From an uncultured Verrucomicrobiae bacterium (GTDB lineage Bacteria; Verrucomicrobiota; Verrucomicrobiia; Limisphaerales; UBA11358): a stretch of DNA of 64,000 nucleotides. The stretch spans positions 80,010 to 144,009 of the forward strand of contig CAVXLF010000008.1 in NCBI GenBank assembly GCA_963762585.1. The letters run 5' to 3'. Position numbers and translations under genes: made by a program. Below the pieces are notes generated by a model. That model had not been told where the DNA came from. It did not search any database and worked only from the letters and a program-made list of their open reading frames with translations. This document shows, piece after piece, positions 1,554-61,887 of this stretch (position 1 is its first letter; each line of letters opens with the position of its first letter).

Positions 1554-1623
1554 GATTGACGATTTACGATTTACGAGCCGGCCAACCACGCGCCTGTCCC
1601 GCGTAAATCGCATATCGTCAATC
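1554..1623. repeat. imperfect hairpin built from GATTTAC-type heptamers between convergent genes (possible bidirectional terminator)
   Basis: Left arm 1554-1575 is 'GATTGACGATTTACGATTTACG'. Right arm 1602-1623 'CGTAAATCGCATATCGTCAATC' equals its reverse complement with 2 mismatches in 22. It lies between the stop at 1551 (+) and the trmB stop at 1641 (-). Confidence 0.6.
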
Positions 1624-4568: not shown

Positions 4569-5681
4569 ATGGGTGACATCATTTATATTTTGTTGGGCGC
4601 AACCTCGGTCGTCGGACTGACGTTTATCATCGAGCGCGCGCTGGCGTTGCGTTGGAACAAGGTCGTGCCGCCGGAAATCACCGGGGCGCTCGCGTCCTGC
4701 AGAACCCGCGAGGACGCCAGGGCGCTCTGCCAGGTCTGCCACCGGAATCCATCGCCACTTGGACGCCTGCTGCTGCTCGCAGCAGATCATCTGGACTGGC
4801 CCAAAGTGGACAACGTGGAAGCGCTGCAAACCGCCGCGCGCCATGAAATCATCCGGCTCGAACGGGGCCTGGTGGTTCTCGAAATCATCGTGGGCATCGC
4901 GCCGCTGCTCGGATTGGTCGGCACCATTGCCGGCATGATGACCTTGTTCAGTGACATCGGCGTTGCCGGCTTGAACGACGCCGCCCGGCTGGCCAAGGGC
5001 ATCGCGTTGATTTTGAACGCGACGTTGATGGGCCTGCTCATCGCCATTCCTTCACTGATTTTCTGGAGTTATTTCAGCAAAAAAGTCGAGGTGTTCGCCG
5101 TCGAGATGGAAGCCCTCTGCGATGATTTCATCCGGCGGCAGTATTCGGATGCGGCAAACGTACTGCCTTCCGAACTCCGGATACCGGAAGCCGAACACCG
5201 GAAGCCGGACGCCCGACGCCCTGCGCCGGAAGCCAAACCTCAGCCGACCGACCCGATTGAGATGCGCTTTTACGTTCGCAAACGCCGCACCACGCCCGCC
5301 GTCATCATCGTCGCGTTGATTGACGTGCTCATCGTGCTGCTGATTTTCCTGCTGGTGACAACCACGTTCCGGCAGCAGGCGGCGTTGAAGCTCGCGTTGC
5401 CCGAATCTTCCCAGGCCAAAAAGGCCGGCGCGAACGAAAATCCGCCGTTTGTCGTGAGCATTGATGCCAATGGAATTTTCTACGTGGAAAAACTGCCCGT
5501 GACCTTCGAGCAATTGCAGAATGAATTGATTTCCCGTTCGGCCAAAAACCCGCAACTCATCCTCGCCATCAACGCCGACGAAAAGGCGCCGTGGGGAAAA
5601 ATCGTAAAGGTGCGCGACGCCGCCGCCCAGGCGAAAATCAAATCCCTGGTCGCCTACACCAAGGAAACGGGCAAGCCGTGA
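4569..5681 (+). CDS. ExbB (MotA/TolQ/ExbB proton channel) fused in one ORF to ExbD/TolR
   Basis: ExbB part: 'GIAPLLGLVGTIAGMMTLF', 'LAKGIALILNATLMGLLIAIPSLIFWSYF'. ExbD part: 'VIIVALIDVLIVLLIFLLVTT', 'FVVSIDANGIFYVEKLPVTFEQLQNEL...LILAINADEKAPWGKIVKVRDAA'. There is no stop codon between the two parts. Confidence 0.8.
   Translation: MGDIIYILLGATSVVGLTFIIERALALRWNKVVPPEITGALASCRTREDARALCQVCHRNPSPLGRLLLLAADHLDWPKVDNVEALQTAARHEIIRLERGLVVLEIIVGIAPLLGLVGTIAGMMTLFSDIGVAGLNDAARLAKGIALILNATLMGLLIAIPSLIFWSYFSKKVEVFAVEMEALCDDFIRRQYSDAANVLPSELRIPEAEHRKPDARRPAPEAKPQPTDPIEMRFYVRKRRTTPAVIIVALIDVLIVLLIFLLVTTTFRQQAALKLALPESSQAKKAGANENPPFVVSIDANGIFYVEKLPVTFEQLQNELISRSAKNPQLILAINADEKAPWGKIVKVRDAAAQAKIKSLVAYTKETGKP
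5177..5239 (+). repeat. nine tandem heptamers (CCGGAAG-type) forming the ExbB-ExbD linker
   Basis: Units: CCGGATA CCGGAAG CCGAACA CCGGAAG CCGGACG CCCGACG CCCTGCG CCGGAAG CCAAACC. Total 63 nt = 21 codons, translated as 'RIPEAEHRKPDARRPAPEAKP'. Confidence 0.75.
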
Positions 5682-10000: not shown

Positions 10001-10363
10001 GGCCAGACCAAGGACCGGCAACAGGTCGTCAGCGCCTTCCAGGGCGACACCGGCCCCGGCGTATTTTTACTGAGTTTGCGCGCGGCGGGAACCGGCTTGA
10101 ATCTGACCAATGCCAGCTACGTGGTGCTTTACGATCCTTGGTGGAATCCCGCCGTGGAAGCGCAGGCCATTGACCGCTCGCATCGCATTGGCCAGACGCA
10201 GACCGTGAATGCCTACCGGCTGATTGCGCCCGGCACGGTCGAGGAAAAAATCTGGGAATTGCAACAGAACAAGGCCCAAACCATCGCCGACGTTCTCGGC
10301 GAGGAAGGTTTCGCCCGCAGCCTCACGGCGACGGATTTGGAATATCTGTTCGCGGAGGATTGA
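7058..10363 (+). CDS. SNF2-family DEAD/DEAH-box helicase with long N-terminal domain
   Basis: Motif I 'LADDMGLGKTLQTL'. Motif II 'AAILDEAQFIKN'. 'LTGTPLENRLLDLWSIVDF'. C-terminal helicase 'VLVFSQFVQMLHLL...LLSLRAAGTGLNLTNASYVVLYDPWWNPAVEAQAIDRSHRIGQ'. Confidence 0.9.
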   Translation: MPKVSVRNGNGSRAAGTTKYDAHHKVLSQTYGAFADLRRELSDSKATVNEREDILRSFAACPDSQRSWLLLEDYFEKLSLSRRDFPDTSWWPRLLNAQGKTRLEELAFLFLRAKRSVPPELQPHASLDRFAQAEETEQEQKLVHELENWLSPPTLPLLDTPRAVLRVVCRAQPDEGEPSRHRLVVQFLLSRPRTGEKARTLREMIDLVVRATHEQELFPPADWEFIQWIADTHRNPALRDADTLILSDAELLQWLARWGHAMRLEYDGKPLEFHGQVALLSPHLENGDKELSFTHYVVLPDGKSHSMAGVKFFNRQPPLALVNGTFYLLRNAPPPAVLKYLTHKPSVPVRKLSHRLLLHLRKTQSNHGVNWEQLCVTHKATPQFVFELLDDTVRLRLLARSQRDQSVWFWNGREWVANESAKRPADKPEILDDPRLEPATQWLRRLDWFTSEPGLWIGDANENFLGSLAGAWADRPKEADFLGNPAFHRLFLQPRQLKPRLVVKGSGIDWLAVSAEWEAEGLKLSKADLERLASATGRFVKLPNSGWVELDTTAVQGAHEAMADMGVDGLIAVPQKVGLEHVAHLDEDGFARFMDSPEAKALRGHIRDFKGVPAIDLPKGLKAEMRPYQKDGFDFLAHLTKVRLGGILADDMGLGKTLQTLTWLAWLKERNTKNPKPSLVICPASVLHNWRREANRFTPNLKVLVLESGAARHNLRKQIPQHDVIVTNYALLRRDLEELQKFAFRAAILDEAQFIKNPGAQVTQSVKQLKSEHRLALTGTPLENRLLDLWSIVDFIQPGYLGNQEQFIEVYEPRQRAGEEAAPTVEARGEKTESAQRIARRRLSAKLRPLLLRRLKKHVAKDLPDRIEERRDCPLGDEQRKLYLAELRRSRDQITQAVAEQGLNKSKMHVLAALTRLRQICCHPQLVGSDTASGKTETLFELLDPLVSEGQKVLVFSQFVQMLHLLEKECQTRQIKTHILTGQTKDRQQVVSAFQGDTGPGVFLLSLRAAGTGLNLTNASYVVLYDPWWNPAVEAQAIDRSHRIGQTQTVNAYRLIAPGTVEEKIWELQQNKAQTIADVLGEEGFARSLTATDLEYLFAED

Positions 10364-13500: not shown

Positions 13501-15000
13501 TTACTTCGCCTTTTCGACCACCAACATTTCGATGGGTTCGCGGCTGGGAACAAGCTCAAGGCCGAGCTGGTCGAGGACTACCTGCCTCAAACCGTCAGGA
13601 TTGGTGAAATAGTAATGTCCGGTGACATCCCATTTCATTTCGTCATCCCATGTGAGATCAACGTCGAAACGACCGGCAAGCCCGGTTCGGTTGACGACTG
13701 GAACCTGTAAATAATATTGAAGATCGTAGATCAGGTAATCAATGAGACCATCGGTGCGGCTCAAATGGCCAATGCCTTCACTGGACGTGGAGCTTCCGGC
13801 TTTAGAGGACGTTGGTTTCAAGCCGGGCGCATTGTGCCGCTTCACCGTCAGCAGCAAAACATCGGTTTCCCGCATCTCGCGCCGGCACGTGATTCCGAAC
13901 TTTTGTTTTATCATTTTCTGCAAGGCCTCTCTTGGACGCTGGGGAACACTGGTGATAAAATCAAAATCGCCCTGCGGCAGTGGCGTCAAAGCAAGAACGC
14001 GACATGGGCTGACGTTATAAGCTTTGGCCAAAAGCGATTCAAACGGCTGATAAACCCCAATGCTTTTCCCCTGCATCTCGTCAAAATCCGCCGCTTCGCG
14101 GGTGAATCTGGTTGGGCGTATGGAAACTGCCGGTTGCGCACTTATCAGTTCCGCATAAAAGTCAGTTCCGGTGATGTTTTTCCAGATGGATTCCTCGCGA
14201 TAATGTGAAACCACCTTGACGGTCAGGGTAGTCGTTCCGGCTCCTGCAAGAGCCACGGCGGCGATCACAATTGCAGATTTCATTTTTGTCCATGCCATAA
14301 TTTTCAGCACTCCTTTCGCTAGTGTCAGGGTTGAGGTGGTTCCGACGGTTCCCTTGGCAACGGCCACGGAAGCCACGGAAGCCGTCAGGCCCGCAGGCGC
14401 CGCCTGGGCGCCATGGGCCGAAATCGTTGCGAGCAGGACCGCCGACGGCACGGCGAATCCCTGGCGAGCGAAGATCAGCCGCAGCTTTTCCAACGCGCGC
14501 GAGACGCGCACCTTGGCGGCGTCCTCGCTCACGCCCAACGTCGCCGCCACTTCCCGGTGGCTTTTGTCCTGGAAAAAGCGGACCAGAACAGCCTCGCGGT
14601 CCTTCCGGGGAAGTTTGTCGAGCGCGTCATTGAGATGCGGCACGATTTGTTCCCAAACCGATGCCGTGTCGTCCGGTCGAAGAATGTTTTCCATCATGAC
14701 TGCCTCCTGTTCGCGGCGCTGGTGGCGGATTTGTTCGCGCGCCACATTGCTGAAGGCAAATCGCGTGGCCCGGAAAAGCCAGCCGGAGAGGACGGCGCCG
14801 CGCGGGATGCGGTCCGCCTTTTGCGCCAGCGCGATGAACACCGCCTGGGTCACCTCCTCCGCCGTGTGTGGATTGCCGGCCTGCCGCAGGGCCGCGTGAT
14901 AGACCAGCCCGGCGTAACGGTCCACGAGCGCGCGAAACGCCTCCTCGGAGTTTCGGGTCGCGTATTCGCGGAGCAATTGCCAGTCGTCCATCGTGTTCAT
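13501..15000 (-). CDS. ECF-type sigma-70 family factor fused to a TM segment and a TIGR03435-like C-terminal domain (paralogue 3)
   Basis: 'FRALVDRYAGLVYHAALRQ', 'LPRKDREAVLVRFFQDKSHREVAATLGVSEDAAKVRVSRALEKLR', 'LKIMAWTKMKSAIVIAAVALAGAGTTTLTV'. C-terminal end 'LDQLGLELVPSREPIEMLVVEKAK'. Confidence 0.8.
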   Translation of the reverse strand: MNTMDDWQLLREYATRNSEEAFRALVDRYAGLVYHAALRQAGNPHTAEEVTQAVFIALAQKADRIPRGAVLSGWLFRATRFAFSNVAREQIRHQRREQEAVMMENILRPDDTASVWEQIVPHLNDALDKLPRKDREAVLVRFFQDKSHREVAATLGVSEDAAKVRVSRALEKLRLIFARQGFAVPSAVLLATISAHGAQAAPAGLTASVASVAVAKGTVGTTSTLTLAKGVLKIMAWTKMKSAIVIAAVALAGAGTTTLTVKVVSHYREESIWKNITGTDFYAELISAQPAVSIRPTRFTREAADFDEMQGKSIGVYQPFESLLAKAYNVSPCRVLALTPLPQGDFDFITSVPQRPREALQKMIKQKFGITCRREMRETDVLLLTVKRHNAPGLKPTSSKAGSSTSSEGIGHLSRTDGLIDYLIYDLQYYLQVPVVNRTGLAGRFDVDLTWDDEMKWDVTGHYYFTNPDGLRQVVLDQLGLELVPSREPIEMLVVEKAK

Positions 15001-15075: not shown

Positions 15076-15110
15076 AAAACGTGATAATGTCACGCCTCAC
15101 GTTTCACGAT
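15076..15110. repeat. short TCACG-type heptamer element / small hairpin
   Basis: 'AAACGTGATAATGTCACGCCTCACGTTTCACGAT' contains units TCACGCC TCACGTT TCACGAT. AAACGTGA pairs with TCACGTTT. This is the same unit family as the repeats at 19151 and 19728. Confidence 0.5.
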
Positions 15111-16160: not shown

Positions 16161-17684
16161 TTATGGCACCGCCGCAACCTGCTGCTGCGACTGGTAAAGC
16201 AATGCGACTTCATTGCTGGAAAGCGCGCGGTTCCACATCATGGGCTCGTCAATCAGGCCGCGAAAGGATGAACCCAGGTCATCCTCCGTCAAATTGGAAC
16301 GGTTGCAACCAATCACCAGGTTGAAATTGTTGGCTCCCACCCGCCCCGGCTGTTCCCAACGCATGCTGGCTTGAGGCTGGCCATCGACGTAGAGCCATTC
16401 CTCGTTCCCATCACAGGTGGTGACAATCTGATGCCATTGCCCGTCGGCCACCTTGGTCTTCGACAAAATGAAGTGTGTTCCCGGCCCGATCTCGATGCTC
16501 GCCAGGCCGCGCCAATTGTTTTTCTGATAATCGCCCGCAACACTGAGGGCGAAGCCCAGGGTGTAGGATTTGTCGAAAATGCGCCGCCACTTGGCATCCG
16601 TGTAGGCGGTCTTGATCCAGGCTGCCAGGGTCAGTTGTTTGGGATTCAGCGACTTGTTGTTCGCGATCACAATCTCGTCGCCGTCGGAGGTGAATTCATA
16701 CGCCCCGCCCCGCCGGCCATCGGCCGTCCAGCGTACCCCGGCGGCCACGCCATGGTTTTCCTGGCCGCTGCCGTCGGTGATTTGGCCACCCTTGATTTTG
16801 CCGCTGCTGTCCGAAATCACGCCGTGGATCGCCTCGTCCTGGTCGAAGGTCATGTCCAGCACCAGCCCCTCGCGCAGGCTTTGCGCCGTGACGGGCGCAT
16901 GGGCCCGGGCATGTTTGATTTTTGCCGTGGAAACGGAGACGACAACAATGGCGAGAATGACCGCCGCGATGATGATGGTGGTTTTTTTCATAAGCATGGT
17001 TTTGATCAGGGTGGATGCGAGGCTGAAAGCGCTCGAACCCGCCGCCCCGGCGAGCGCCGCCGTGCTCACGGTCGCCGCCAGGCCCGCCGGCGCCGCCTGG
17101 ACGGCATTGGCGGCAATCATCGAAACCATCGCGGTGGAGGAAGCAACCATGCCCCGGCGGACAAAATGGGATCGAAGCTTTTCCACCGCCCGGCTGACGC
17201 GTTTTTGGGCCGCATCCTCATTGCTGCCCAACGCCTCACCAATGGCGCGGAGGTCGCGATGTTCGAAAAAGCGCAGGACAATCGCCGCGCGATCGCGGGC
17301 GTCCAGCTGGTTGATGGCGTCGTCCAAAATGGGAGCAATCTGCTCAAAGCTGGTCTCGGCACAGTCCGATAGTGTGTTCATTTCAGCGGCCTCTCTTTCA
17401 CGGTGTTGCCGGCGGCGCTCGTTTCGCATGAGCGTGGTGGCCACATGCCACGTGCGCCGGTGCAGCCAGCCGCCGAGCATGACATCCTGGGAAAGCGTCC
17501 CTGCCAGCCGCGCCAGATCCGCGAACACCGTCTGCGCCACATCTTCGGCCCGGTGCGTGTCCCCATTGACCAGCCGAACGGCTGTCGAATAGACCAGATT
17601 GATGTAGCTCGCGACCAGTTCGCGAAACGCCTGTTCCGAACCGTTGGCGACATAGTCTGCAAGCAATGTCCGAGGTTCCGTCAT
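16161..17684 (-). CDS. ECF-type sigma-70 family factor fused to a TM segment and a LamG (Laminin_G_3 / concanavalin-A-like) domain (paralogue 4)
   Basis: 'FRELVASYINLVYSTAVRL', 'LDARDRAAIVLRFFEHRDLRAIGEALGSNEDAAQKRVSRAVEKLR'. TM 'TTIIIAAVILAIVVVSV'. LamG pattern 'LTLAAWIK...DGQWHQIVTTCDGNEEWLYVDGQ...FRGLIDEPMMWNRALSSNEVALLY'. Confidence 0.85.
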   Translation of the reverse strand: MTEPRTLLADYVANGSEQAFRELVASYINLVYSTAVRLVNGDTHRAEDVAQTVFADLARLAGTLSQDVMLGGWLHRRTWHVATTLMRNERRRQHREREAAEMNTLSDCAETSFEQIAPILDDAINQLDARDRAAIVLRFFEHRDLRAIGEALGSNEDAAQKRVSRAVEKLRSHFVRRGMVASSTAMVSMIAANAVQAAPAGLAATVSTAALAGAAGSSAFSLASTLIKTMLMKKTTIIIAAVILAIVVVSVSTAKIKHARAHAPVTAQSLREGLVLDMTFDQDEAIHGVISDSSGKIKGGQITDGSGQENHGVAAGVRWTADGRRGGAYEFTSDGDEIVIANNKSLNPKQLTLAAWIKTAYTDAKWRRIFDKSYTLGFALSVAGDYQKNNWRGLASIEIGPGTHFILSKTKVADGQWHQIVTTCDGNEEWLYVDGQPQASMRWEQPGRVGANNFNLVIGCNRSNLTEDDLGSSFRGLIDEPMMWNRALSSNEVALLYQSQQQVAAVP

Positions 17685-17865: not shown

Positions 17866-19131
17866 CTATTCGTATCTGAGCGACTCAATCGGGTCCAGGT
17901 TCGCCGCCTTGTAGGCCGGGTAGGTTCCAAAAACAATTCCGACCACCGAGCAAATCAACAGCCCCAGCACAATCCAGTCAAACGGGATGGTGGGTGGCAC
18001 TTTCATGTACCAGGCCAGGAGGTTGCCGCCCAGGATGCCCAGCACGACGCCGATGACGCCGCCGACTTCGCAGAGCACCACGGCTTCCATGATGAACTGG
18101 CCCATGATATTCCGGCGCTTGGCGCCGACGGCGCGGCGTACGCCGATTTCGCGCGTCCGTTCCGTGACCGAGACCAGCATGATGTTCATGATGCCGATGC
18201 CCGCCGCAATGAGCGCGATGGAACTGACAATCGCCACGCCCACCCGGACGGCGCGGGTGAACGTTTTAAATTGTTCGATGAGCGAATTGTTGGAAAACAG
18301 TTCGAAGTCATCCGGCGCGCCCGGCGGGACCTTGCGCACCGCCCGCAGGATGCCGCGCACCTGTTCAATGCAATCGTCATAGGTGGCGCCATCGCGCGCC
18401 TGCACCAGGATTGTCATATCGTCCCACCAGCGGCCGTAGCGGTTGAGCGCGGTGGTGATGGGGATGATGGCAAAATCGTCCTGCTGCCCGCCCAACGACG
18501 CCCCCTTGGTGGCGAGCACGCCGACGACCTGGTATTTGTAGCCGTTGATTTTAATCGGTTCGCCCACGGCTGCGCCAAAGGGGAAAACCGTTTTGGCCAG
18601 CGCGCTGCCCAGCACACAAACATCGCGGGCGTTGTCCACGTCGTCGGCTGTAAGGACGCGACCGTCGTCGATGTCCCAGTTGCGCGCGGCGAAACTGCCC
18701 GGGGTTTCACCATACAGGCGGGTGCTGGGCGCCGTCTGGGCGTAACGGGTCTGGACCTGTCCGCGCCAGAAATCGCCCTCGATGCCCACGTTGGCGGCCA
18801 GCGTGGCCTTCTCCTCCACCTGCCGGCTTTCTTCGAGGGTGATGTATTTGCGCCGCCAGTATTTTTGCCAGTCCGCGTTGTTGCCGAACTGGACTTCCGG
18901 CCAGCGCTGAATGGCAAAGGTCTGGCTGCCCAACCGGCTCATCCAGTTTTCAGTGTTCCGTTCCAGCACCCGCATCGCCGTCATCACGACGATGATGGAA
19001 AACACGCCAATCAGCACGCCGAGCAGGGTGAGCGCCGAACGCAGCTTGTGCGCCGCCAGCGCATTCATCGCCATGGAGAAGCTTTCGTGGACCTCGGCGA
19101 GGATTAACGTGGCTGCCGGTTTTGTTCTCAT
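17866..19131 (-). CDS. ABC transporter permease, MacB/FtsX family (second permease of the operon)
   Basis: N-terminal TM 'LRSALTLLGVLIGVFSIIVVMTAM'. Large periplasmic domain. FtsX-type C-terminus 'ERTREIGVRRAVGAKRRNIMGQFIMEAVVL...GTYPAYKAANLDPIESLRYE'. Confidence 0.9.
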   Translation of the reverse strand: MRTKPAATLILAEVHESFSMAMNALAAHKLRSALTLLGVLIGVFSIIVVMTAMRVLERNTENWMSRLGSQTFAIQRWPEVQFGNNADWQKYWRRKYITLEESRQVEEKATLAANVGIEGDFWRGQVQTRYAQTAPSTRLYGETPGSFAARNWDIDDGRVLTADDVDNARDVCVLGSALAKTVFPFGAAVGEPIKINGYKYQVVGVLATKGASLGGQQDDFAIIPITTALNRYGRWWDDMTILVQARDGATYDDCIEQVRGILRAVRKVPPGAPDDFELFSNNSLIEQFKTFTRAVRVGVAIVSSIALIAAGIGIMNIMLVSVTERTREIGVRRAVGAKRRNIMGQFIMEAVVLCEVGGVIGVVLGILGGNLLAWYMKVPPTIPFDWIVLGLLICSVVGIVFGTYPAYKAANLDPIESLRYE

Positions 19132-19150
19132 TGACCTGGGCTAATTGATC

Positions 19151-19199
19151 CGTGATGCGTAAAACGTGAAACGTGATCCGTAATGTGTGACGTGTAAAT
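19151..19199. repeat. seven CGTGAAA-type heptamers, distal flank of the four-helix-bundle gene
   Basis: Units: CGTGATG CGTAAAA CGTGAAA CGTGATC CGTAATG TGTGACG TGTAAAT. Confidence 0.7.
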
Positions 19200-19205
19200 G
19201 CATGG

Positions 19206-19715
19206 CTAAACCAGAGGAATGTTTTGGAGCGATTGCGCCAGTGCATCGGGATCGAAAGGTGAATCTGTGTCTGGTGGAGTCACAGGAATTCGGTAGGGTA
19301 GGCTGTCTTCGCGGAGGAGGGAGCCGCGCTGATCTGGTACCATCGTGAGCAACAGGCGGATGATTTGGCTCACAAGTCGAATCCTATGTTCGGCGACCTT
19401 TATGCCGAGCACATGCCGGCCTTTGTAAAACCAGTCACGGCTTTCGCGCGCGGAGCCAAGGCCATATTCATAAAACCGGGCGCGATCTTTGCCAGTACCC
19501 CGTGAATAGCCCTCGGCCACGTTTGCTCCGATGGACCCAATAGCCCGGTAAAGCTGGTCGGAAAGTCCGAGCGTGCGCTTGTCTTTCATCAATTTGCTCA
19601 CGTCATGCCAGCCCAGTTCCGTTGCGAACAGTGCCAGGCGATAGGCCTCAACTTTCCAAAGTGAATCATCTGTTATCTCCACGGGCACCGACTTTAACCA
19701 TTCATCATAATTCAT
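19206..19715 (-). CDS. four-helix-bundle protein (23S rRNA intervening-sequence protein family, TIGR02436-like)
   Basis: 'EAYRLALFATELGWHDVSKLMKDKRTLGLSDQLYRAIGSIGANVAEGYSRGTGKDRARFYEYGLGSARESRDWFYKGRHV'. Start taken at 'MNYDEW'; the ORF track starts at an upstream GTG at 19733. Confidence 0.8.
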   Translation of the reverse strand: MNYDEWLKSVPVEITDDSLWKVEAYRLALFATELGWHDVSKLMKDKRTLGLSDQLYRAIGSIGANVAEGYSRGTGKDRARFYEYGLGSARESRDWFYKGRHVLGIKVAEHRIRLVSQIIRLLLTMVPDQRGSLLREDSLPYRIPVTPPDTDSPFDPDALAQSLQNIPLV

Positions 19716-19727
19716 AACCAACCCCAT

Positions 19728-19755
19728 TCTCACGTTTCACGCATCACGTTTCACG
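19728..19755. repeat. four TTTCACG-type heptamers, proximal flank of the four-helix-bundle gene, inverted relative to 19151-19199
   Basis: Units TCTCACG TTTCACG CATCACG TTTCACG. The reverse complement is CGTGAAA CGTGATG CGTGAAA CGTGAGA. It matches units 1-3 of the other flank at 19 of 21 positions. Confidence 0.7.
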
Positions 19756-19757
19756 CC

Positions 19758-20996
19758 TCATTCACTCCTCAACGCCTCCACCGGGTCCATCCGCGCCGCG
19801 CGCCAGGCCGGCAGGAAACCGGAAATCACCCCGGTCAGCAACGACACCAGCAGGGACAGGGCGACAATGATCCCGGACAAGGATGCCGGAAACAGCCAGG
19901 CCGAAACCGCGAGCGTGACCAGCCAGGCGATGCCCAGACCGATCAACCCGCCCAACAGGCAGATGCAGGCGGCCTCGACCAGAAAATGCAGCAGGATGTT
20001 GCGGCGTTTGGCCCCAATGGCCTTGCGCACGCCGATCTCGCGTGTCCGCTCGACCACCGAGACGAACATGATGTTCATGATGCCGATGCCGCCAACGAAC
20101 AGCGCCAGGCTGGTGACGCACATACCGATGATGGCAATGGTGCGGGTTTCGCGGTGGAACATGTCCACGAACTGGTCCTGCTGGTTGATGGCAAAGTTGT
20201 CCAGTTCATCGGGCTTCAGGTGGCGGACGTGGCGCATGGCCTGGCGCAATTCCTCCCGGGCCTCGTCCAGTTGCGCCAGCCCGCCGGCCTTGATGTTGAT
20301 CTGGTCAATGCTGGGTGCGTTCCAGATGTCCGCCAAAAATTCCCGGATGGGAATAATCACCCGGTTGTCCAGGCTCCAACCGAGGATGGACCCCTGTTTA
20401 TCGAGCACGCCAATGACCTCAAAGGACTGGTCACTGACCTTGATCCGCGCCCCGATGGGCGGTTCTCCGCGAAAAAGGTTGGTGGCGACATCGCTGCCGA
20501 TGACGCAGACCGGCTGTCCGCCCTCGGCATCCGCGGCGGTCAAAAACCGTCCCCGGGCCACGGTCACACCGCTGGTTTCCAGATAAGCCTCGGTGGTGCC
20601 GATGATTTGAACGAGGTTGGCGCTGCGCGTCCGGTATTTCACCGCTTCAAAGTCGTCGACCTCGGGCGCCACGGCGGCGGCCAGGGCCAGTTGCCGGGAC
20701 AACGCCTCGGCCTCCGGGAGCCGGATGGGCGGGCGCCGCCGCTGGAGTTTAATCCAGTTGTCGTAGGAATCGTTGCTCCACCAGGAACTGCGCGAAACAT
20801 AAAACACATCCGCGCCCAGTGCCGAGATGCTTTTCATGAACGCCTGGTCCAATCCATGAATGGTCGCGCCCATGAGGGTGACGGTGAGGATGCCGATGAC
20901 GATGCCGAGGGTGGCGAGCATCGAGCGCATTTTATTCGCGCGGATGGCATCCCACGAAATGCCCAGGCCCTCGTGAATTTCGCTGAGAAATTTCAT
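19758..20996 (-). CDS. ABC transporter permease, MacB/FtsX family (first permease)
   Basis: Start at 'MKFLSEIHEGLGISWDAIRANKMRS'. C-terminus 'ERTREIGVRKAIGAKRRNILLHFLVEAACI...GFLPAWRAARMDPVEALRSE'. The upstream ORF extension lies inside a repeat. Confidence 0.9.
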   Translation of the reverse strand: MKFLSEIHEGLGISWDAIRANKMRSMLATLGIVIGILTVTLMGATIHGLDQAFMKSISALGADVFYVSRSSWWSNDSYDNWIKLQRRRPPIRLPEAEALSRQLALAAAVAPEVDDFEAVKYRTRSANLVQIIGTTEAYLETSGVTVARGRFLTAADAEGGQPVCVIGSDVATNLFRGEPPIGARIKVSDQSFEVIGVLDKQGSILGWSLDNRVIIPIREFLADIWNAPSIDQINIKAGGLAQLDEAREELRQAMRHVRHLKPDELDNFAINQQDQFVDMFHRETRTIAIIGMCVTSLALFVGGIGIMNIMFVSVVERTREIGVRKAIGAKRRNILLHFLVEAACICLLGGLIGLGIAWLVTLAVSAWLFPASLSGIIVALSLLVSLLTGVISGFLPAWRAARMDPVEALRSE

Positions 20997-21004
20997 CCGA
21001 GGAA

Positions 21005-21098
21005 AACATCGAACATCCAACATCCAACATCCAATGCCCAATGCGTGGTGGTTGGGCCTGAGTTCGTTGGATGTTCGGCGTTCGATGTTGGTTGTTGG
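21005..21098. repeat. about 95-nt imperfect palindrome built from AACATCC heptamers, between the ATPase and permease genes
   Basis: Left arm: AACATCG AACATCC AACATCC AACATCC AATGCCC. Right arm reverse complement: GAACATC CAACAAC CAACATC GAACGCC GAACATC CAACGAA. Confidence 0.75.
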
Positions 21099-21102
21099 AT
21101 GT

Positions 21103-21789
21103 TCATTTCACCGGTTTCTCGTCGCTGGCGATCAGGCCGTCGCGGATGCGGAGGATGCGGCGCGCCTGCCGGGCAATGTCCTCCTCGTGCGTGACGATGA
21201 TGATGGTGTTGCCTTTGCGTGAAAGATCATCGAACAAGGCCATGATTTCCGCGCCGGTCTTGGAGTCGAGGTTGCCGGTCGGTTCGTCAGCCAGCAGGAT
21301 GGAAGGTTTGTTGACAAGCGCGCGGGCGACGGCGACGCGCTGGCGCTGGCCGCCGGAAAGTTCGTTGGGTTTGTGATGAATGCGATCGGACAGGCCAACC
21401 TGGGCGAGCGCATCGAGCGCGATCTGACGGCGCTCCGCCGCCGGGACGCCGGCGTAAATGAGGGGCAGCTCGACGTTGTGCAGCGCGTTCGAGCGCGCCA
21501 GCAGATTGAAGGTCTGGAACACAAAACCGATCTCGCGGTTGCGGATTTCCGCCAGCTGGTTGTCGTCCATCTCGCTGACCTGGGCGCCGTTGAGTTCGTA
21601 ACCGCCGGAGGTCGGGGTATCGAGACAGCCGATGAGATTCATCAAGGTGGATTTGCCCGAACCGGACGGACCCATGATGGCGACGTATTCGCCGCGCTGG
21701 ATTTCGAGCGACACGTCGCGCAGCGCGTGGACGGTTTCCGCGCTCATCTGGTAGCGCCGCGAAATGTTCTGGAACCGGATGAGTGCCAC
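21103..21789 (-). CDS. ABC transporter ATP-binding protein (MacB/LolD type)
   Basis: Walker A '[12 protein letters not shown]'. Signature '[15 protein letters not shown]'. Walker B '[12 protein letters not shown]'. Confidence 0.95.
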
Positions 21790-28441: not shown

Positions 28442-28680
28442 AAGCGTGAGAACGTTGTTAGCAATCGCTGTTCCTAGTTCAGCTTCGTCCATTTCGCGGG
28501 ATTTTTCATCAAACCACCTTCACTTTTTTAAACATTTTTTATTTGAACTAATCCAAAACGTGGCCGATAGTAATGGTTGAAGAGTTGAGTAATTCCAGAC
28601 TGGACGTTATTTCCCCGGTAAATGGGCTTCGTTTCGAGATTTCCCCGGCACAACGGAACGGTTATGCTCTGTGCGCTATT

Positions 28681-29781
28681 ATGGCGAACCCGCAATCTGC
28701 GAACTCATCAGCCGCTGCCGGAATCGGATATGCGATGCCGGCGGAATGGGAAAGGCATGAAGCCACCTGGCTCGGCTGGCCGCACAATGAAACCGATTGG
28801 CCGAACAAACTCGACACCATCCGCTGGGTTTATGGCGAGATGGTGCGAAAAATTTCACCGGGCGAAATCGTGCGGCTGCTGGTCCGGAACCCCGCCGAAC
28901 AAAAACTGGCCGCCAGCTATTTGAAACGCGCCGGCTGCGATCTGAACCAGGTCGAATTTATCGTGCACCCGACCAATCGCGGCTGGACCCGCGACAGCGG
29001 ACCGATCTTCGTGAAGCGGAGGTCAAAGTCCAAAGGCCAAAGTCCAAAATCAGAAACCGCGATCGTGCATTTCCACTTCAACGCCTGGGCGAAATATGAT
29101 GACTGGAAAAAGGACACCCGTGTCCCGGAGACAGCCGCCCGGCGGTTGAAGCAACCGCTGTTCAACGCGCAGTTCAACGGAAGAAATTTTGTCATCGAAG
29201 GCGGCGGCATCGAAGTCAACGGTCGCGGCACATTGCTCACCACCGAGGAATGCTATCTGCACCCGAAAATCCAGGTGCGGAATCCCGGCCTGACCAAGGC
29301 GCAATACGACGAGACGTTCAGAAACCATCTCGGCGTCAAAAACATCCTCTGGCTGCTCAACGGACCGGTCGGTGACGACACGCACGGGCACATTGACGAC
29401 ATCTGCCGCTTCGTAAATTCCAAAACGCTCGTGCTCATCCGGGAAACCAACCGGCGCGACATCAATTACCGGCCGCTTGCCGAAAACTGGGAACGTGTGC
29501 GGGAATTCCGGCTCGAAGACGGCTCAAAACCCGAAGTGGTGCCGCTGCCCATGCCCGCGCCAATTTTTTATGACGGCTATCGCCTGCCCGCGAGCTACGC
29601 AAATTTTTATATTTGCAACGCCGGCGTCATCGTCCCCACGTTCAACGATCCGAACGACCGGGTGGCGCTCGGCACGCTGGGCGAGTTGTTCAAGGACCGT
29701 CCGGTGGTGGGTATTCATGCCGTTGACCTCGTGCTCGGTTTCGGCTCGCTGCACTGCCTGACGCAGCAACAACCGGCGTAA
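28681..29781 (+). CDS. aguA: agmatine deiminase
   Basis: 'YAMPAEWERHEATWLGWPHNETDW', 'NRGWTRDSGPIFV', 'FNAWAKY', 'EGGGIEVNGRGTLLTTEECYL', 'GHIDDICRF', 'GSLHCLTQQQP'. Start placed at the ATG at 28681, upstream of the conserved 'MPAEWE'. Confidence 0.9.
   Translation: MANPQSANSSAAAGIGYAMPAEWERHEATWLGWPHNETDWPNKLDTIRWVYGEMVRKISPGEIVRLLVRNPAEQKLAASYLKRAGCDLNQVEFIVHPTNRGWTRDSGPIFVKRRSKSKGQSPKSETAIVHFHFNAWAKYDDWKKDTRVPETAARRLKQPLFNAQFNGRNFVIEGGGIEVNGRGTLLTTEECYLHPKIQVRNPGLTKAQYDETFRNHLGVKNILWLLNGPVGDDTHGHIDDICRFVNSKTLVLIRETNRRDINYRPLAENWERVREFRLEDGSKPEVVPLPMPAPIFYDGYRLPASYANFYICNAGVIVPTFNDPNDRVALGTLGELFKDRPVVGIHAVDLVLGFGSLHCLTQQQPA
29022..29056 (+). repeat. five GTCCAAA-type heptamers inside aguA
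   Basis: Units GTCAAAG TCCAAAG GCCAAAG TCCAAAA TCAGAAA, translated 'SKSKGQSPKSE', between conserved 'DSGPIFV' and 'FHFNAW'. Confidence 0.7.
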
Positions 29782-41329: not shown

Positions 41330-44300
41330 ATGGCGGAGCGCTGCCCGTTGAACGGCGTTTGCCGGGCGGCACAACCTTTCCTTGCGGTTCTGCTGCAAGC
41401 CATTTTCCCCCGTCGGCCACTGGTCATCGTCGCCGCCGGATTTGAAAACGCAGGAAAGTTTTCAACAGGATATTGAAACCTGGCTGCAAATTCGAGTCCC
41501 CCGCCGAAACCCCAAAGCCCAAGGCTGGCAATCCACAACCGCCCGCTCCCGGCTCCCGGCTGCTGTTTTACCCCGCCTGGGAATTTTTTCCCCACGAAGG
41601 CAAGCTCCCGCATGCCGATACCATCAGTGACCGCCTTCAAACGCTGGTTGCCCTGTCCACCCAATCCGCCCAATCCGCCCTCCGCCCTCCGCTCTCCGCC
41701 CTGGTCGTCACCAGCGTCACCGCCCTGCTCCAGAAGACCTTTCCGCCCGGCGAAATCCAAAAGCGCACGCGCCAATGTCAACGCGGGGACCAAATCAATC
41801 CCCTGGATCTGATCGAATGGCTCGAAGAACAGGGCTATGAGCCGGAAGCCCAGGTCACCCAGAAAGGTGAAATCGCCCTGCGCGGCGGCATCCTCGATGT
41901 CTGGCCGCTGACCAGCCCGTGGCCCGCCCGGCTGGAATTCTTTGGCGACGAACTTGAATCGCTCCGCCACTTTGATCCGCTCACACAGATTTCGCGCCAG
42001 GAGGTTTCGGGCATCACCATCCCGCCCGGCGGCGAACTGGGAATTTTAAAGGCCGAAGTTCAAAGTCCGGAGCACAAAAATCCCAGGTTGGCAACGCTGC
42101 TCGACCATCTGCCGCGCGAAACCATTTTTCTCCTGTGCGAGCCGGAACAACTGGCAGCGCGGGCCGGTGATTACCAGTCGCAAATTCCCGACGGCGACCG
42201 GTTCCTGATTCCGTGGGAAAAATTCCTCGCCGACCTCGACCAACGCGGCATGACGCGACTGGATCTAAGCGAAGAAGATGTTCAACCCACCATCGCCGCA
42301 CCCGGCCAGCCGGCCACCCTTTCTCCGCTGCGCGGGGAGAAGGACGGGGCGAGGGGCACGACATTATTTTCCTCACTCGATGCCTACCGTCCGCTGGCCG
42401 AACGCGCACCCGAACTGCCAATTGCCGAGGCGCAGCGCCGCGAATTTTTCCATCAGCTTCACCGCTGGCTGCGGCAGGACTATGCCGTCCACGTCTTTTG
42501 CAACAACGACGGTGAAAGGCAGCGATTCAACGAAATTTGGGCGGAATGGGGCGTCGGCTCCGGCGTCCCGGGTCCGGAAAAGGATGCCCTCACGGTAAAT
42601 CCCCAGACGCCGGACGCCGGACCCCGGACGCGAATTGGTTCGCTTGCCCGCGGTTTCATTTGCGAGGATGCCAAACTTGTCGTCGTCACCGACGCGGAGA
42701 TTTTTGGCCGCTATAAAATCCAGCGCCCGCGCCGGCTGAAATCGCCGCAGGCGCTCGCCATCCGCTCCGCCCTCGACATTGATTTCACCGAACTGGAGGA
42801 AGGTGACCTCGTCGTCCACCTCCAGTACGGCATCGGCCGTTTTCTCGGCCTGAAAACCCTGCCGGCTTCCAGCCGTTCCCACGGCTCCCCGCTTCCGGCG
42901 CCGGACTCCGAAACCGAATGTCTGGTGATTGAGTATGCGCCGGCCAATCCCGGTGACGAACCGCCGAAACTCTACGTGCCGGTGACCGAAGCGCATCTGG
43001 TCGGCAAATACGTCGGCGCCGGCAAGGCGCATCCGCCTTTGAACACCCTTGGCGGCACCCGCTGGCGCAAGGCCAGGGAACAGGCCGAACGCGCCGTGCG
43101 CGATGTTGCCGCTGAATTACTGCAAATCCAGGCCGTGCGCGAATCCCAGCCCGGCCACGCCTTCAAACCGGATGCGCCCTGGCAGCGCGAGTTTGAAAGC
43201 GCCTTCATTTTCGAGGAAACCCCCGATCAATGGCGCGCCATTCAGGAAACCAAATCCGACATGGAAAAACCCAAGCCGATGGACCGCCTGATTTGCGGCG
43301 ACGTCGGCTTTGGCAAAACCGAGGTCGCCATCCGCGCCGCGTTCAAGGCTGTGATGGACGGAAAGCAGGTCGCCGTACTGGTGCCCACAACCGTGCTGGC
43401 GCAGCAACATTTCAACACGTTCCGCGAGCGCCTGGCTGATTATCCCATTCGCATCGAATTGCTTTCGCGCTTTCGCACCCGGCGCCAGCAACAACGCGTC
43501 GTCAAAGATCTGGCCCACGGCGCCGTGGACATGGTCATCGGCACGCACCGGCTGATTCAGAACGACATCCTTTTCAAGGACCTCGGCCTCGTGGTGATTG
43601 ATGAGGAGCAGCGGTTCGGCGTGTTGCACAAGGAAAAGTTCAAACGGCTGCGCACACAGGTGGACGTGCTCACGCTCAGCGCCACGCCCATTCCCCGCAC
43701 GCTTTACCTCGCGCTCACCGGTGCGCGCGACATGAGCACCATCCAGACCCCGCCGCATGACCGGCTGCCGGTCGAGACCATTGTTACCCAGTTCGACGAG
43801 CGCGTCATCCGCGATGCCATCCAGCGCGAGTTGAATCGCGGCGGGCAGGTTTTTTTCCTGCACAATCGCGTAATGACGATTCAAGCCATGGCCGACCGCC
43901 TGAAACGGCTTCTGCCCCACGCGCGCCTGGTCATTGGTCACGGCCAGATGGATGCGGACGAACTGGAAGCGGTCATGACCCAATTCGTCAATGGCAAGGC
44001 GGATGTCCTGCTGTCCACCACCATCATCGAGAGCGGCCTGGATATTCCAAACGCGAACACCATCATCATCGACCGCGCCGACCGGTTTGGCCTGAGCGAC
44101 CTTTACCAGTTGCGCGGGCGGGTCGGGCGTTACAAGCACCAGGCCTATGCCTATTTGCTGTTGCCGCGCCACGTAAGCCTGCTCACCGATGTGCGCAAAC
44201 GCATCAGCGCCATCCGGCAATATTCCACGCTGGGCAGCGGGTTTAAAATTGCCATGCGCGACCTTGAGATCCGCGGCGCCGGCAATCTGCTCGGCTCGGA

Positions 44301-44838
44301 ACAAAGCGGCCACATCACCGCCATCGGTTTCGAGCTTTACTGCCAGTTGCTCAAGCAAAGTGTTTCATCGCTCAAGGGTGAAAAAATAAAACCGAGGGTG
44401 GAAGTGAGCGTGAAATTGGAGTTCTTGGACCAGTCAGCAGTCAGTGGTCAACCGTCAGTCGCTACTGACTACAAACCACCGACTACCGACAAATCTGCCT
44501 CCCTGCCCCACACCTATGTCACCGAACCGCAGCACCGCATCGAAATCTACCGCAAACTCGCTCAGGCTGCGGATAAATCGGCGCTGGAAAGTTTGCAAAC
44601 GGAAATGCGCGACCGCTTTGGCCCGTTGCCGCCGCCGGCGGAATTGCTGCTGCTGGTGGCCGAATTGAAAATTCTCGCCAGCGAAAAATCTGTGACTGTA
44701 ATCGAGGTCAAGGAAGACAAGTTGATGCTCACGCGCCATGGCGATTTCATCACGCTGGGCGGCAAATTTCCCAGGCTCACCAAAAAAGAGGCCAAAGCGA
44801 GACTAAAAGAAATCAAACGGCTGCTGCTGGCGATTTAG
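41330..44838 (+). CDS. mfd: transcription-repair coupling factor Mfd (main frame 41473..44838; first ~55 codons need two +1 frame corrections)
   Basis: Helicase '[21 protein letters not shown]', '[12 protein letters not shown]', '[12 protein letters not shown]', '[11 protein letters not shown]', '[11 protein letters not shown]'. N-terminus is spread over three frames: '[37 protein letters not shown]', then '[16 protein letters not shown]', then '[29 protein letters not shown]'. Confidence 0.85.
41661..41699 (+). repeat. CAATCCGCC x2 plus CCTCCGC-type heptamers x3 inside mfd
   Basis: 'CCAATCCGC CCAATCCGC CCTCCGC CCTCCGC TCTCCGC', translated '[13 protein letters not shown]'. Confidence 0.6.
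42604..42631 (+). repeat. four CGGACGC-type heptamers inside mfd
   Basis: Units CAGACGC CGGACGC CGGACCC CGGACGC, translated 'QTPDAGPRT'. Confidence 0.6.
44431..44493 (+). repeat. nine heptamers (CAGTCAG type) forming an imperfect hairpin inside mfd
   Basis: Units CAGTCAG CAGTCAG TGGTCAA CCGTCAG TCGCTAC TGACTAC AAACCAC CGACTAC CGACAAA. Total 63 nt = 21 codons, '[21 protein letters not shown]'. The second half is roughly the reverse complement of the first. Confidence 0.7.
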
Positions 44839-46074: not shown

Positions 46075-47682
46075 TTAACTGATTCGCAGCCACACCGTTT
46101 TCAAGTACGCCGGTTCACCACGGCTGACGGGGAAATCCGGCGGTTGCGGGAAATAATGCAACTGCAAAATCTTGCGTCGTGATTGATGGACGGCGGTTTC
46201 GATGTCGGCCAGAAAATCTTCCGGCGGCCAGTCCGCGGCATTGGTTGAGGCGAACAGAATTCCGTCCGGCTTCAGAACCGGCAGCGCGGCGGCGATGAGT
46301 TTTCCATAATCCTTCTCCGCGCGGAACACACCGCTTTCCTTCGATTGCGAAAATGTCGGCGGATCCAGCGCCACCACTTCAAAAGCACGGCCTTTTTTCG
46401 CCAGCCGCCGCAACCAGTCGAAGGTGTCGCCATAAATGAAATCGTGCGCCGCCGGGTCAAGCGCGTTCAACGCAAAGTTCCGCCGGCCCCATTCGAGGTA
46501 TTTCTTCGAGAGGTCGAGACTCGTCGTCCGGGCGCCCGCCCGCGCCGCGCAGACGGAAAAGCCGCAGGTATAGGCGAAACAATTCAGGAGATGGAAGTTG
46601 GGAGATGGAAGTTGGGGCAGGAAGAAATCCGCCGCGATGTGGCCGGTCAAAAAGCGGCGGCGGTTGTCGCGCTGGTCCAGAAACAAACCGACGGAATAAC
46701 CTTCGTGGAAACTCATCTCGAAGCGGATGCCGTTTTCCAAAATCTCGAACCGTTCCGGCGCTGCTTCGCCCAGAACCCGTTGTGGCGACGCGTCCGCCAC
46801 GGTGGCACGCCGAACCTGGCGCGACAGGATTTTGTGATACGCGCCGCGCACCGAAAGCATTTCCATCCGTCGCGCCAGTTCTTCGCGCTGGTCCGCGCGC
46901 AGCGGCTGTTCGGATTGCGACAGCAGAAAATCACCCAACCGTTCAACGTACCACCCCGGCCAACCGTCGCTCGCACCATGAATCATACGGAAGGCGTTCG
47001 TCGCTTCCGTCTCAATCAACGCGGCCCGCAGCGCGAGGGATGTGTGGGCGTCAAAGCCGGCCGGCGCGCAGAACGTCACCGGCCTGCCGGTGGCTGGATG
47101 GGTGAAGGATATTTCTGCCGCGTGCAGATAAACCCGTGCGGCCGGCGTGCCACCGTAAAGCGTGTCGCCAAGAATCGGAAATCCACTTTCCGCCGCGTGA
47201 ACGCGAATCTGGTGGGTCTTTCCCGTGAGTGGCTCCGCTTCCAGCATTTGAAATTCTGGGTTCTGGGTTCTGGATTCTGACTTTGGCGCCAGCCGGAATT
47301 TCGTTTCCGCGATTTCCGCGCCCGCATGCGGCGGCCGGCTTACATATTTTTCACCAACCCGGACGAGCGCGGCTTTAACGGTGAACCCGGGATCCGGCCC
47401 GGGCCGGTCGGTCAGCAGCAGGTATTTTTTACGGACGCGGCGTTGCGCGAATTGTTCCGTGAGCGAATGGTTGGCGGCGGGGGTTTTGCCAAAGACGAGC
47501 ACGCCGCTGGTTTCCTTGTCCAAGCGATGCAAAATGGCCAGGGCCGCCCAGCGCGGTTCGCGGTGGCGCAGCCAGTCGTAGAGGCCCTCACCGGCGTATG
47601 GGGCGGGTGTGTGCGTGTTCCAGCCGGCGGGCTTGCGGACCACCAGCAGATGTTCATCCTCAAAAATGACGCACGGCGCCAT
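46075..47682 (-). CDS. fusion protein: RluA-family pseudouridine synthase (N) plus RlmI-type class I SAM methyltransferase (C)
   Basis: N part: '[13 protein letters not shown]', '[18 protein letters not shown]', '[25 protein letters not shown]'. C part: '[22 protein letters not shown]', '[12 protein letters not shown]', '[20 protein letters not shown]', '[13 protein letters not shown]'. Single uninterrupted 535-aa ORF. Confidence 0.8.
46587..46614. repeat. perfect 14-nt tandem duplication (two heptamer pairs) inside the fusion gene
   Basis: 'GGAGATGGAAGTTG' at 46587-46600 and again at 46601-46614. It codes (minus strand) for '[10 protein letters not shown]', just before the SAM-binding motif. 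Confidence 0.7.
47254..47281. repeat. four TTCTGGG-type heptamers inside the fusion gene
   Basis: Units TTCTGGG TTCTGGG TTCTGGA TTCTGAC. They code (minus strand) for '[11 protein letters not shown]' within the RluA part. Confidence 0.7.
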
Positions 47683-55681: not shown

Positions 55682-55722
55682 GGTTTCCTTTTTGGCTTCA
55701 CTTTGCAGGTGTCCGGTTGAGG

Positions 55723-60923: not shown

Positions 60924-60940
60924 GTTTGCAAAAACGAACC

Positions 60941-61849: not shown

Positions 61850-61887
61850 AATGTTAACCAAACTAACGGGAGTTGCGTTTGCATTCA

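Follow-up and report, generated by a model that had tools for sequence, protein, structure and literature searches.

Gene-less and gene-bearing heptamer-repeat hairpins of like build in an efflux operon of an uncultured verrucomicrobial genome

Introduction

Tandem repeats of 7-nt units are over-represented in prokaryotic genomes, and polymerase slippage has been proposed as the rationale (PMC4692102, PMC4679880). Described families include GGGAATC in Xanthomonas, where the arrays mostly hold four units and some form inverted pairs, GGGGATT and the short tandemly repeated repetitive (STRR) sequences in Nostoc, and TAACTGA in Beggiatoaceae (PMC4692102, PMC4679880). Heptamers also occur in the intervening sequence (IVS) of 23S rRNA. 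In Coxiella, this IVS carries an open reading frame (ORF) of the four-helix-bundle (4HB) family PF05635, and its stem holds two to three tandem copies of GACAGAT, at the first of which RNase III cuts; the number of heptamers varies between strains (PMC4990558). The abundance of bacterial 7-nt repeats and the nature of the 23S IVS and their 4HB proteins have been two puzzles for 20–30 years. Here we analyse a hairpin made of heptamer arrays at positions 21005–21104 of a 64,000-nt stretch of DNA (hereafter, the window; contig CAVXLF010000008.1, positions 80,010–144,009, of assembly GCA_963762585.1) from an uncultured Verrucomicrobiae bacterium of the order Limisphaerales.

An original prediction, made from the letters of the window, had described tandem heptamers at many loci, with a different unit at each, and had likened them to STRR sequences. 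Our literature search found no paper joining heptanucleotide repeats with Verrucomicrobia and none that describes such repeats in frame within housekeeping genes. The excess of heptameric repeats, the inverted pairs of Xanthomonas and the heptamers in the Coxiella IVS stem are already in print. New here are a quantitative rise of array density with the number of 4HB genes among relatives, GxxExxY cassettes of the same build whose units are longer, a single operon junction that is occupied differently in different relatives, ~50 genes with in-frame arrays, the in-register concerted evolution of units at orthologous sites, and a cassette type found together with its arms in unrelated contexts. 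The hairpin is probably a gene-less member of a family of heptamer modules found throughout the genome, which would be IVS-like cassettes spread in mRNA spacers.

Results

The hairpin lies in a minus-strand efflux operon whose genes encode an adaptor of the MacA type, an ATPase of the MacB/LolD type and a permease of the MacB/FtsX type (Table 1). Its 5′ side reads AACATCG AACATCC AACATCC AACATCC AATGCCC AA, that is, five AACATCC-type units; past the loop, its 3′ side reads TTGGATG TTCGGCG TTCGATG TTGGTTG TTGGATG TT, five units of the GGATGTT type. Tandem Repeats Finder (TRF) reports a period-7 array of 4.3 copies with 95% match at 21005–21034 and another of 5.4 copies at 21066–21103. According to an inverted-repeat finder, the arms 21005–21041 and 21067–21103 are complementary at 76% over 37 nt and at 87% over 31 nt. 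Folded as RNA of the transcribed (minus) strand, the hairpin reaches −44.8 kcal/mol, compared with −26.5 ± 3.1 kcal/mol for shuffled sequences (n = 200; z = −5.8), and none of the 200 shuffles folded as well. As had been claimed, the element separates the stop codon of the ATPase gene from the start codon of the permease gene, and it occupies this spacer completely: its first repeat unit overlaps the ATPase TGA (21103–21105, minus strand), and 8 nt past its last unit comes the permease ATG (20994–20996), as read from the sequence.

We considered three simple identities for this element and rejected each. An intrinsic terminator has a short GC-rich stem, a loop of 3–8 nt and a U-tract, whereas the stem here is ~35 bp and the loop 25 nt; a terminator scan called only a sub-stem in the plus-strand arm, never the whole hairpin. 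A known RNA family was rejected on zero Rfam matches at E ≤ 1 across 18900–21400. An assembly artefact was rejected on identical contigs from several independent peat and permafrost metagenome runs and on homologous elements in relatives. Contigs from four metagenomes reproduce the window.

A second element of the same architecture, with a longer loop, lies in the same operon between the two permease genes (19151–19760). Its loop contains a 4HB gene, whose product matches TIGR02436 (1.7e-16), PF05635 (2.9e-14) and the PDB entry 2GSC, Xcc0516 (E 2.8e-4). The original prediction had listed 19151–19199 and 19728–19755 as separate CGTGAAA/TCACG loci and missed this context; they are the two arms around the 4HB gene. 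Metatranscriptome contigs with zero to three mismatches cover 19115–19347 and 19526–19799, taking in each arm, the 4HB gene and the end of the permease gene; the cassette is therefore co-transcribed with the permease gene. In the genome as a whole, inverted arrays bracket five of the six 4HB genes, each with a different unit, and one of these five, at C9:94129–94449, has arms of AACATCC, the commonest gene-less family. Both GxxExxY genes (TIGR04256, PD-(D/E)XK) likewise have inverted arms, built of 9–10-nt units. Across 40 relatives, the number of copies per genome ranges from 0 to 14 for 4HB and from 0 to 11 for GxxExxY. Inverted arms above the control maximum were present at no fewer than 13/30 of the 4HB loci in relatives (mostly period 7, two of period 8) and at least 11/30 of the GxxExxY loci (units mostly longer than 7 nt), both counts being minima since the ORF finder missed several loci.

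The genome under study is a metagenome-assembled genome of 2.50 Mb in 31 contigs, 79% complete. It holds 351 period-7 arrays at a TRF score of at least 30, compared with 77.6 in order-5 Markov simulations; at a score of at least 45, 117 arrays stand against 0.0, confirming that heptamers are pervasive beyond compositional expectation. Period 7 is the commonest TRF period genome-wide, and periods 8, 10 and 11 match expectation at a score of at least 30. Heptamer periodicity was equally clear at the loci listed by the original prediction: in 12/12, lag 7 gave the highest self-match among lags 5–10 (0.46–0.86, against 0.07–0.60 at the other lags). Most arrays have four to five copies (mode 4) and are about 30–36 nt long. 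The sole long array, C4:64460–64601, comprises ~20 copies of GGATGTT/CGATGTT in 142 nt (TRF score 221); all others have 2–8 copies. The 182 arrays of score 40 or more represent 68 canonical units, so the units are indeed varied, but they are only partly specific to a locus: four of them cover 75 arrays (AACATCC 31, AAATCGT 18, AAAGTCC 17, AACTCCG 9), and units form families that loci and genera have in common. Three consecutive copies of AACATCC were present in 12/41 relatives, other families included, compared with 0/41 for the reversed control.

After merging (n = 212 arrays), an inverted partner within 160 nt accompanied 41/87 intergenic arrays and 7/75 deep genic ones, with a null of 0. 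This bears out the claim that runs of units are, at several loci, followed by inverted runs, and 44 hairpins with a median length of 88 nt were obtained. Co-directional gene spacers contain 32 of them, convergent spacers 4 and divergent spacers 1, against a background of 1399 co-directional, 322 convergent and 325 divergent gene pairs. The start of the hairpin falls between 5 nt before and 16 nt after the upstream stop codon in 20 of these 32 co-directional spacers. Copies of the AACATCC hairpin have in common their arms and an inner CCAATG/CATTGG turn.

The original prediction had proposed looking for presence or absence at orthologous sites. Loci surrounding the neighbouring heptose-epimerase gene were retrieved from relatives, and their ATPase/permease junctions proved to be filled, empty or differently filled. 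One relative (L018) carries an AACATCC hairpin with a loop that differs from that of the window. Four junctions (L021, L032, L039, L043) are empty, with 16–26 nt only. Another (L040) has a hairpin with arms of a hexamer (CATCCT) array, and in L052 the junction is filled by a 472-nt insert, a GxxExxY gene flanked by inverted GACAGAAT repeats. The GACAGAAT 8-mers of L052 resemble the Coxiella IVS heptamer GACAGAT.

The 4HB cassette is variably present as well. In metagenome contigs of ~90% identity to the window, 38 nt connect 19086 with 19758, with sides of 49–64 nt; these contigs represent a relative without the cassette. Joints from 19176 to 19736 were considered as a cargo-less allele of the window's own cassette; this was rejected, since one of their sides is only 20 nt long and falls wholly within the arm. 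Other loci of this family are their probable source, and the joints were left out of the count.

Cassettes with their arms also recur in unrelated surroundings. L185 (genome G008) and L187 (G001) share cargo of 76% amino-acid identity and the same order of arm variants (CCAGAATTCAGGAGCC[A/T]GAATC), and their flanking genes are unrelated. L190, from another family of the order, and L191 form a second such pair in unrelated contexts. In this genome and two relatives (G017, G020), the arms of the orthologous metK–ahcY cassette consist of heptamers that contain TTTCA; judged by eye, the dominant forms, GTTTTCA and GGTTTCA, are ~1 base apart.

Arrays inside essential genes, another element of the original prediction, proved to be widespread. 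About 50 genes, by our crude gene calls, carry them in frame, in linkers or loops. Genome-wide hosts include GcvP, ThiE, a HemN-like enzyme, RecG, PriA, UvrA, ArgRS, LeuRS, CysRS and RlmN; within the window, they are Mfd (three sites), AguA, an RluA–methyltransferase fusion and ExbB–ExbD. Many deep-genic arrays are perfect and leave the frame unbroken. Because 7 and 3 share no factor, a stop-free array encodes one cyclic heptapeptide in all frames, which helps such arrays to be tolerated inside genes. One unit is read as SELRTPN in two genes and as SAIGNRQ in another two. Genic arrays of the main families have the A-rich strand as sense in 27 cases versus 5, a bias that can be explained by stop codons and hydrophobicity on the opposite strand; solo intergenic arrays are unbiased.

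Comparison of orthologous genic sites revealed how the units change. At the GcvP site, distant relatives have a non-periodic linker (..PAPFARTS..), and congeners carry GNRQSAIGNRQS, NSQFAIRNSQ, NRKPESGNRKAE and KTLDFRLRTLD in the same place and at nearly equal length, peptides that look like products of several kinds of heptamer array, the heptamer units being deduced here from peptides rather than DNA. Thirteen further sites were compared with two congeners at ~70–78% amino-acid identity. Usually the congener array is in register and its unit ~2 substitutions off, with the change carried through the array, as in the pairs AGAAGTC/AGACGCC, TCCGAAC/TCCGCAA and AATCGGA/AATCCGC. Overall, orthologous genic units differ by 2–3 substitutions, and by 2 where both arrays are uniform; in-register identity of at least 5/7 has a chance probability of 0.016. 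Identity within arrays (0.76–1.0) exceeds that between orthologous arrays (0.57–0.71), which marks concerted evolution against a nearly neutral background. At the RecG, PriA and HemN-like sites, the congener holds an unrelated module or an in-frame hairpin. The CysRS insert (C8:42020–42110) is missing from both congeners; it is exactly 63 nt long and consists of two adjacent, non-inverted modules, AGTCCAA x4 followed by the 8-mer TCAACGAT x3. At the AguA site, the ortholog of G022 carries CAGACGC x3.5.

At the Mfd hairpin (44431–44493), a strain of metagenome run X4 has a sequence that is 12 nt shorter and cannot be aligned over 44431–44496, and the distant flanks are ~1% divergent. The site was rebuilt as AACGTGA AACGTAA GAGGTGA / ATCACGC x3, a hairpin of another family (approximate; four indels not shown). 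An exact search for the reconstructed junction returned zero matches. The 65 nt adjoining the hairpin are ~18% divergent, and the site thus lies in a patch of elevated divergence, 44361–44496, on which grounds a recent swap of the hairpin was rejected. The simplest reading is that a more distant relative was the source of this allele. A metagenome contig of ~89% identity (L320) keeps the CAGTCAG family at this site. Elsewhere in mfd, a strain single-nucleotide polymorphism (SNP), 42616 G>C, converts one unit of an array to its neighbour's form.

Array density varies with the number of 4HB genes. We measured period-7 arrays of TRF score 40 or more per 100 kb in this genome and in 76–500 kb sampled from each of eight relatives. 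The highest densities were 8.25 in G028 (14 4HB genes), 7.3 in the genome under study (6), 4.5 in G011 (13) and 3.25 in G022 (8). They fell to 1.0 in G023 (1) and 0.5 in G014 (2), and to 0.45, 0 and 0 in the 4HB-free G037, G033 and G032, respectively. Spearman's rho between array density and 4HB genes per Mb was 0.90 (p = 0.0009, n = 9, not phylogenetically corrected), compared with 0.68 for GxxExxY and 0.63 for Y1 transposase genes in the same nine genomes. The cassette arms themselves contribute only ~0.5 arrays per 100 kb.

Table 1. Heptamer-repeat elements of the window and the operon genes around the hairpin (positions in the window)
Feature	Coordinates	Strand	Details
Gene-less heptamer hairpin, AACATCC family	21005..21104		5′ arm 21005-21041; loop 21042-21066 (25 nt); 3′ arm 21067-21104
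MacB/LolD-type ABC ATPase gene	21103..21789	-	NCBIfam MacB 1e-81, LolD 9e-72
MacB/FtsX-type permease gene	19758..20996	-	MacB permease part 9e-60
Promoter-proximal arm of 4HB cassette	19728..19760		TCACGTT TCACGCA TCACGTT TCACGCC; starts just past permease stop; lag-7 match 0.76
Cargo gene, 4HB protein, 23S rRNA IVS protein family	19206..19715	-	
Distal arm of 4HB cassette	19151..19199		CGTGATG CGTAAAA CGTGAAA CGTGATC CGTAATG TGTGACG; inverse of other arm; lag-7 match 0.67
Second MacB_PCD/FtsX permease gene	17866..19131	-	Downstream of 4HB cassette; Pfam PF12704, PF02687
Intergenic hairpin, ATTTACG family	1554..1623		GATTGAC GATTTAC GATTTAC, loop, GTAAATC GCATATC GTCAATC; fold -30.7 kcal/mol
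Nine-unit (63-nt) CCGGAAG-type array, ExbB-ExbD linker	5177..5239	+	Open frame 4569-5681
Short intergenic inverted pair, CGTGAAA family	15076..15110		Lag-7 match 0.46, weakest of the listed loci
In-frame array, GTCCAAA family	29020..29056	+	Peptide SKSKGQSPKSE; agmatine-deiminase-type gene (AguA) 28573-29781
In-frame array, TCCGCCC type	41661..41702	+	N-terminal linker of Mfd; mfd 41473-44838
In-frame array, CGGACGC type	42604..42631	+	Mfd, between UvrB-interaction and RID domains
In-frame 63-nt hairpin	44431..44493	+	Mfd, just before TRCF domain; CAGTCAG-type then CTGACTA-type arm
In-frame period-7/14 array, GGAGATG GAAGTTG x2	46587..46616	-	Methyltransferase half of ORF 46075-47682
In-frame array, TTCTGGG x3.7	47254..47281	-	Pseudouridine-synthase half of ORF 46075-47682

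Two of the ORFs in Table 1 have composite products. ORF 4569–5681 (370 aa) matches MotA_ExbB at aa 84–181 and ExbD at aa 239–365, with the array at aa ~203–223; it is either a genuine ExbB–ExbD fusion or a frame within which ExbD begins at an internal ATG. ORF 46075–47682 (minus strand, 535 aa) joins an RluA-type pseudouridine synthase to a SAM-dependent (RlmI-like) methyltransferase and has a period-7 array in each half.

Other features of the window were recorded along the way. A 153-nt tandem repeat (53157–53482; 2.1 copies, 74% match, TRF score 331) lies within a very long minus-strand ORF, 52712–56296, beside a 1475-aa ORF at 55723–60150. The minus-strand genes 13501–15000 and 16161–17684 encode sigma-70 domains of the extracytoplasmic-function (ECF) type fused to long DUF3738 and TafC-like C-terminal regions, respectively; these may be sigma/anti-sigma-like fusions. 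Opposite a Snf2-type helicase gene (7058–10363, plus strand, 1101 aa) runs an 800-aa open frame (7619–10021, minus strand), probably a compositional artefact. GC content is 0.50–0.53 at 60001–64000, compared with a background of ~0.59.

Discussion

Taken together, these data make it probable that the hairpin at 21005–21104 is one gene-less member of a family of heptamer modules dispersed over the genome as IVS-like cassettes in mRNA spacers. In operon spacers, two inverted modules pair into a hairpin of ~88 nt with its start at the upstream stop codon. Similar inverted arms enclose cargo, either 4HB genes (PF05635) or, with 9–11-nt units, GxxExxY/PD-(D/E)XK genes; this is the build of an ORF-bearing IVS, moved to mRNA spacers. 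Single modules, and occasionally hairpins, persist in frame in the linkers and loops of ~50 conserved genes. The modules may spread as cassettes or as derivatives resembling miniature inverted-repeat transposable elements (MITEs); local conversion would then keep each array uniform, and drift would follow. By analogy with the IVS, RNase III probably cuts the long stems (~35 bp) in the RNA and so parts neighbouring cistrons.

Several observations weigh against this interpretation. The loops of AACATCC hairpins are mostly unrelated among copies, an unusual state of affairs if one MITE had given rise to them all. Similar 4HB cassettes mostly occupy orthologous positions, indicating mainly vertical inheritance. 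Target-site duplications were looked for at the clean 63-nt CysRS insertion, the PriA site and the HisZ-like site, and none was visible; neither a mobility enzyme nor observed movement was found. Hairpin and cassette arms showed no variants of ±7 nt in contigs from strains at most a few percent divergent over the stretches compared, a comparison limited by the loss of rare variants from metagenome contigs; any array activity would therefore be slow. The RNA contigs over the cassette, thin in coverage and available as contigs only, show read-through and no processing. The correlation between arrays and 4HB genes (nine genomes, kinship ignored) could reflect shared permissiveness. The incompleteness of the genome and gene coordinates from a crude in-house ORF caller count on the same side.

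A more specific proposal is that each lineage of the pentameric 4HB protein (PF05635, Avd-like) recognises its own 7-nt word and thereby promotes the creation, homogenisation or spread of arrays. We regard this as tentative, and on balance doubtful. It would match ~five units per arm to the five subunits per ring, and would plant fixed-length modules in operon junctions, rRNA helices and protein linkers.

The main competitor is that the arrays are ordinary polymerase-slippage microsatellites, kept by selection in tolerant places, with an incidental link to 4HB genes. We consider it unlikely as a full account, although the published over-representation of heptamers and the Xanthomonas GGGAATC arrays, mostly of four units and sometimes in inverted pairs, are in its favour. 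Concerted unit changes and the SNP at 42616 also fit slipped-strand repair, and units at orthologous sites diverge at about the neutral rate. Slippage thus remains a rival for the uniformity of arrays. Against it stand the narrow copy number (mode 4, with a single 20-copy array), the lack of ±7-nt variants among strain contigs over the stretches compared, and the repeated use of a few units, at dozens of loci and by other families of this order. It does not account for inverted pairing far above the null, for the joint relocation of arms and cargo, or for the dependence on 4HB genes, since related genomes free of them are nearly array-free at GC contents from 41% to 62%. Alternatively, the hairpins could be RNA structures selected by the host, such as intercistronic stabilisers, attenuators or terminators comparable to the repetitive extragenic palindromes (REPs) and bacterial interspersed mosaic elements (BIMEs) of E. 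coli, with the genic arrays as a by-product. The strong bias towards co-directional spacers, the depletion in divergent (promoter) spacers, the very stable stems and the T-rich sequence that often follows 3′ arms are what this would predict. The junction, however, is empty in four relatives and filled by unrelated elements in others, and thus requires no particular structure. An RNA role is also unlikely for the in-frame arrays of ~50 genes, and in the RNA contigs transcription runs on across the cassette arms; together with the negative terminator and Rfam results, this makes host-selected structure improbable.

Two enzymatic origins were also weighed. REP doublets forming hairpins (REPINs), mobilised by Y1 transposases (REP-associated tyrosine transposases, RAYT, or IS200-like), resemble the ~90-nt doublet hairpins described here (PMC3116915), and Y1 genes are available, with five in this genome and some in 36/41 relatives. 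At the three clear Y1 genes of ~160–190 aa, the flanking repeats are short GC-rich palindromes and not heptamer arrays; G008, with seven 4HB genes and with AACATCC arrays, has no Y1 gene; and Y1 number tracks array density less closely than 4HB number does. We therefore hold a Y1-driven origin to be very improbable. The palindromes at these three genes (C31:18847–19194, C30:7075–7416, C23:198398–198742), e.g. CAACCC..GGGTTG and CCCAGCG..CGCTGGG, are a second, REP-like repeat system, separate from the heptamer arrays. Finally, the fixed length of ~33 nt makes the arrays look 'written', as if by a reverse transcriptase acting with an Avd-like 4HB protein in the manner of a diversity-generating retroelement (DGR) or of telomerase. 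PF05635 proteins are, we presume, related to Avd, the accessory factor of DGR reverse transcriptases. The domain RVT_1 is missing from this genome and from 28/41 relatives, including the nearly complete, 4HB-rich G003, G010, G031 and G035, which leaves this origin barely conceivable.

On the interpretation of the hairpin as a gene-less relative of IVS-like cassettes, the genome ties the two long-standing puzzles together, with gene-less and gene-bearing hairpins of like build in one operon. Repeat-encoded peptides in ~50 conserved genes, among them tRNA synthetases, Mfd, RecG, UvrA and PriA, represent a rarely seen tolerance, and the concerted in-frame arrays are a natural record of repeat DNA turning into protein linker. 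If 4HB proteins did recognise heptamer words, bacterial heptamer repeats and rRNA intervening sequences would be accounted for jointly; a functional link between protein and array would point to a new class of nucleic-acid-recognising system.

How far the elements described here correspond to known systems depends on the feature compared. REPINs and REP/BIME elements are, likewise, intergenic hairpin doublets of ~90 nt present in many copies, mostly within transcription units. Their arms are short palindromes, whereas the arms here are tandem repeats, and the RAYT-like genes of this genome carry a different repeat. Rickettsia palindromic elements also persist in frame in conserved genes, where they add surface peptide segments; they are palindromes of 100–150 bp with unique sequence, and the modules here, 30–63 nt of tandem heptamers, have no sequence relation to them.

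With the heptameric repeats of other bacteria, the arrays share a tandem 7-nt unit, about four copies, a mainly intergenic location and occasional inverted pairs. They also show the over-representation of period 7 relative to composition by which Mrazek-type long simple sequence repeats are recognised (351 vs 77.6; 117 vs 0). They differ in the many unit families within one genome, the systematic hairpins at stop codons, the cargo between arms and the presence in frame in ~50 genes. The likeness to cyanobacterial STRR sequences drawn in the original prediction holds for the architecture, dispersed tandem heptanucleotides, as it does for other bacterial heptameric repeats; it is an analogy only, as the host is verrucomicrobial and not a heterocystous cyanobacterium. 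The STRR1–3 units, which we take to be CCCCAGT, TTGGTCA and CAACAGT, show no match by eye to the dominant units here, with rotations unchecked.

The closest counterpart is the ORF-bearing IVS of 23S rRNA in Coxiella burnetii and Leptospira (S23p/PF05635 ORF). There, as in the 4HB cassette, a PF05635 gene lies in the loop of a long inverted-repeat stem, and the host transcript contains the cargo gene in sense orientation. Terminal inverted repeats forming a long stem are present here, and the gene at 19206–19715 supplies the PF05635/TIGR02436 ORF inside the element, which the gene-less hairpin at 21005–21104 lacks. The 23S IVS sits in helix 25 or 45 of the rRNA, whereas the elements of this genome lie in mRNA, between the protein-coding genes of operons. 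Unlike the 23S IVS, most copies here are gene-less, their arms are full arrays of four to five units, and the modules also occur in frame within proteins.

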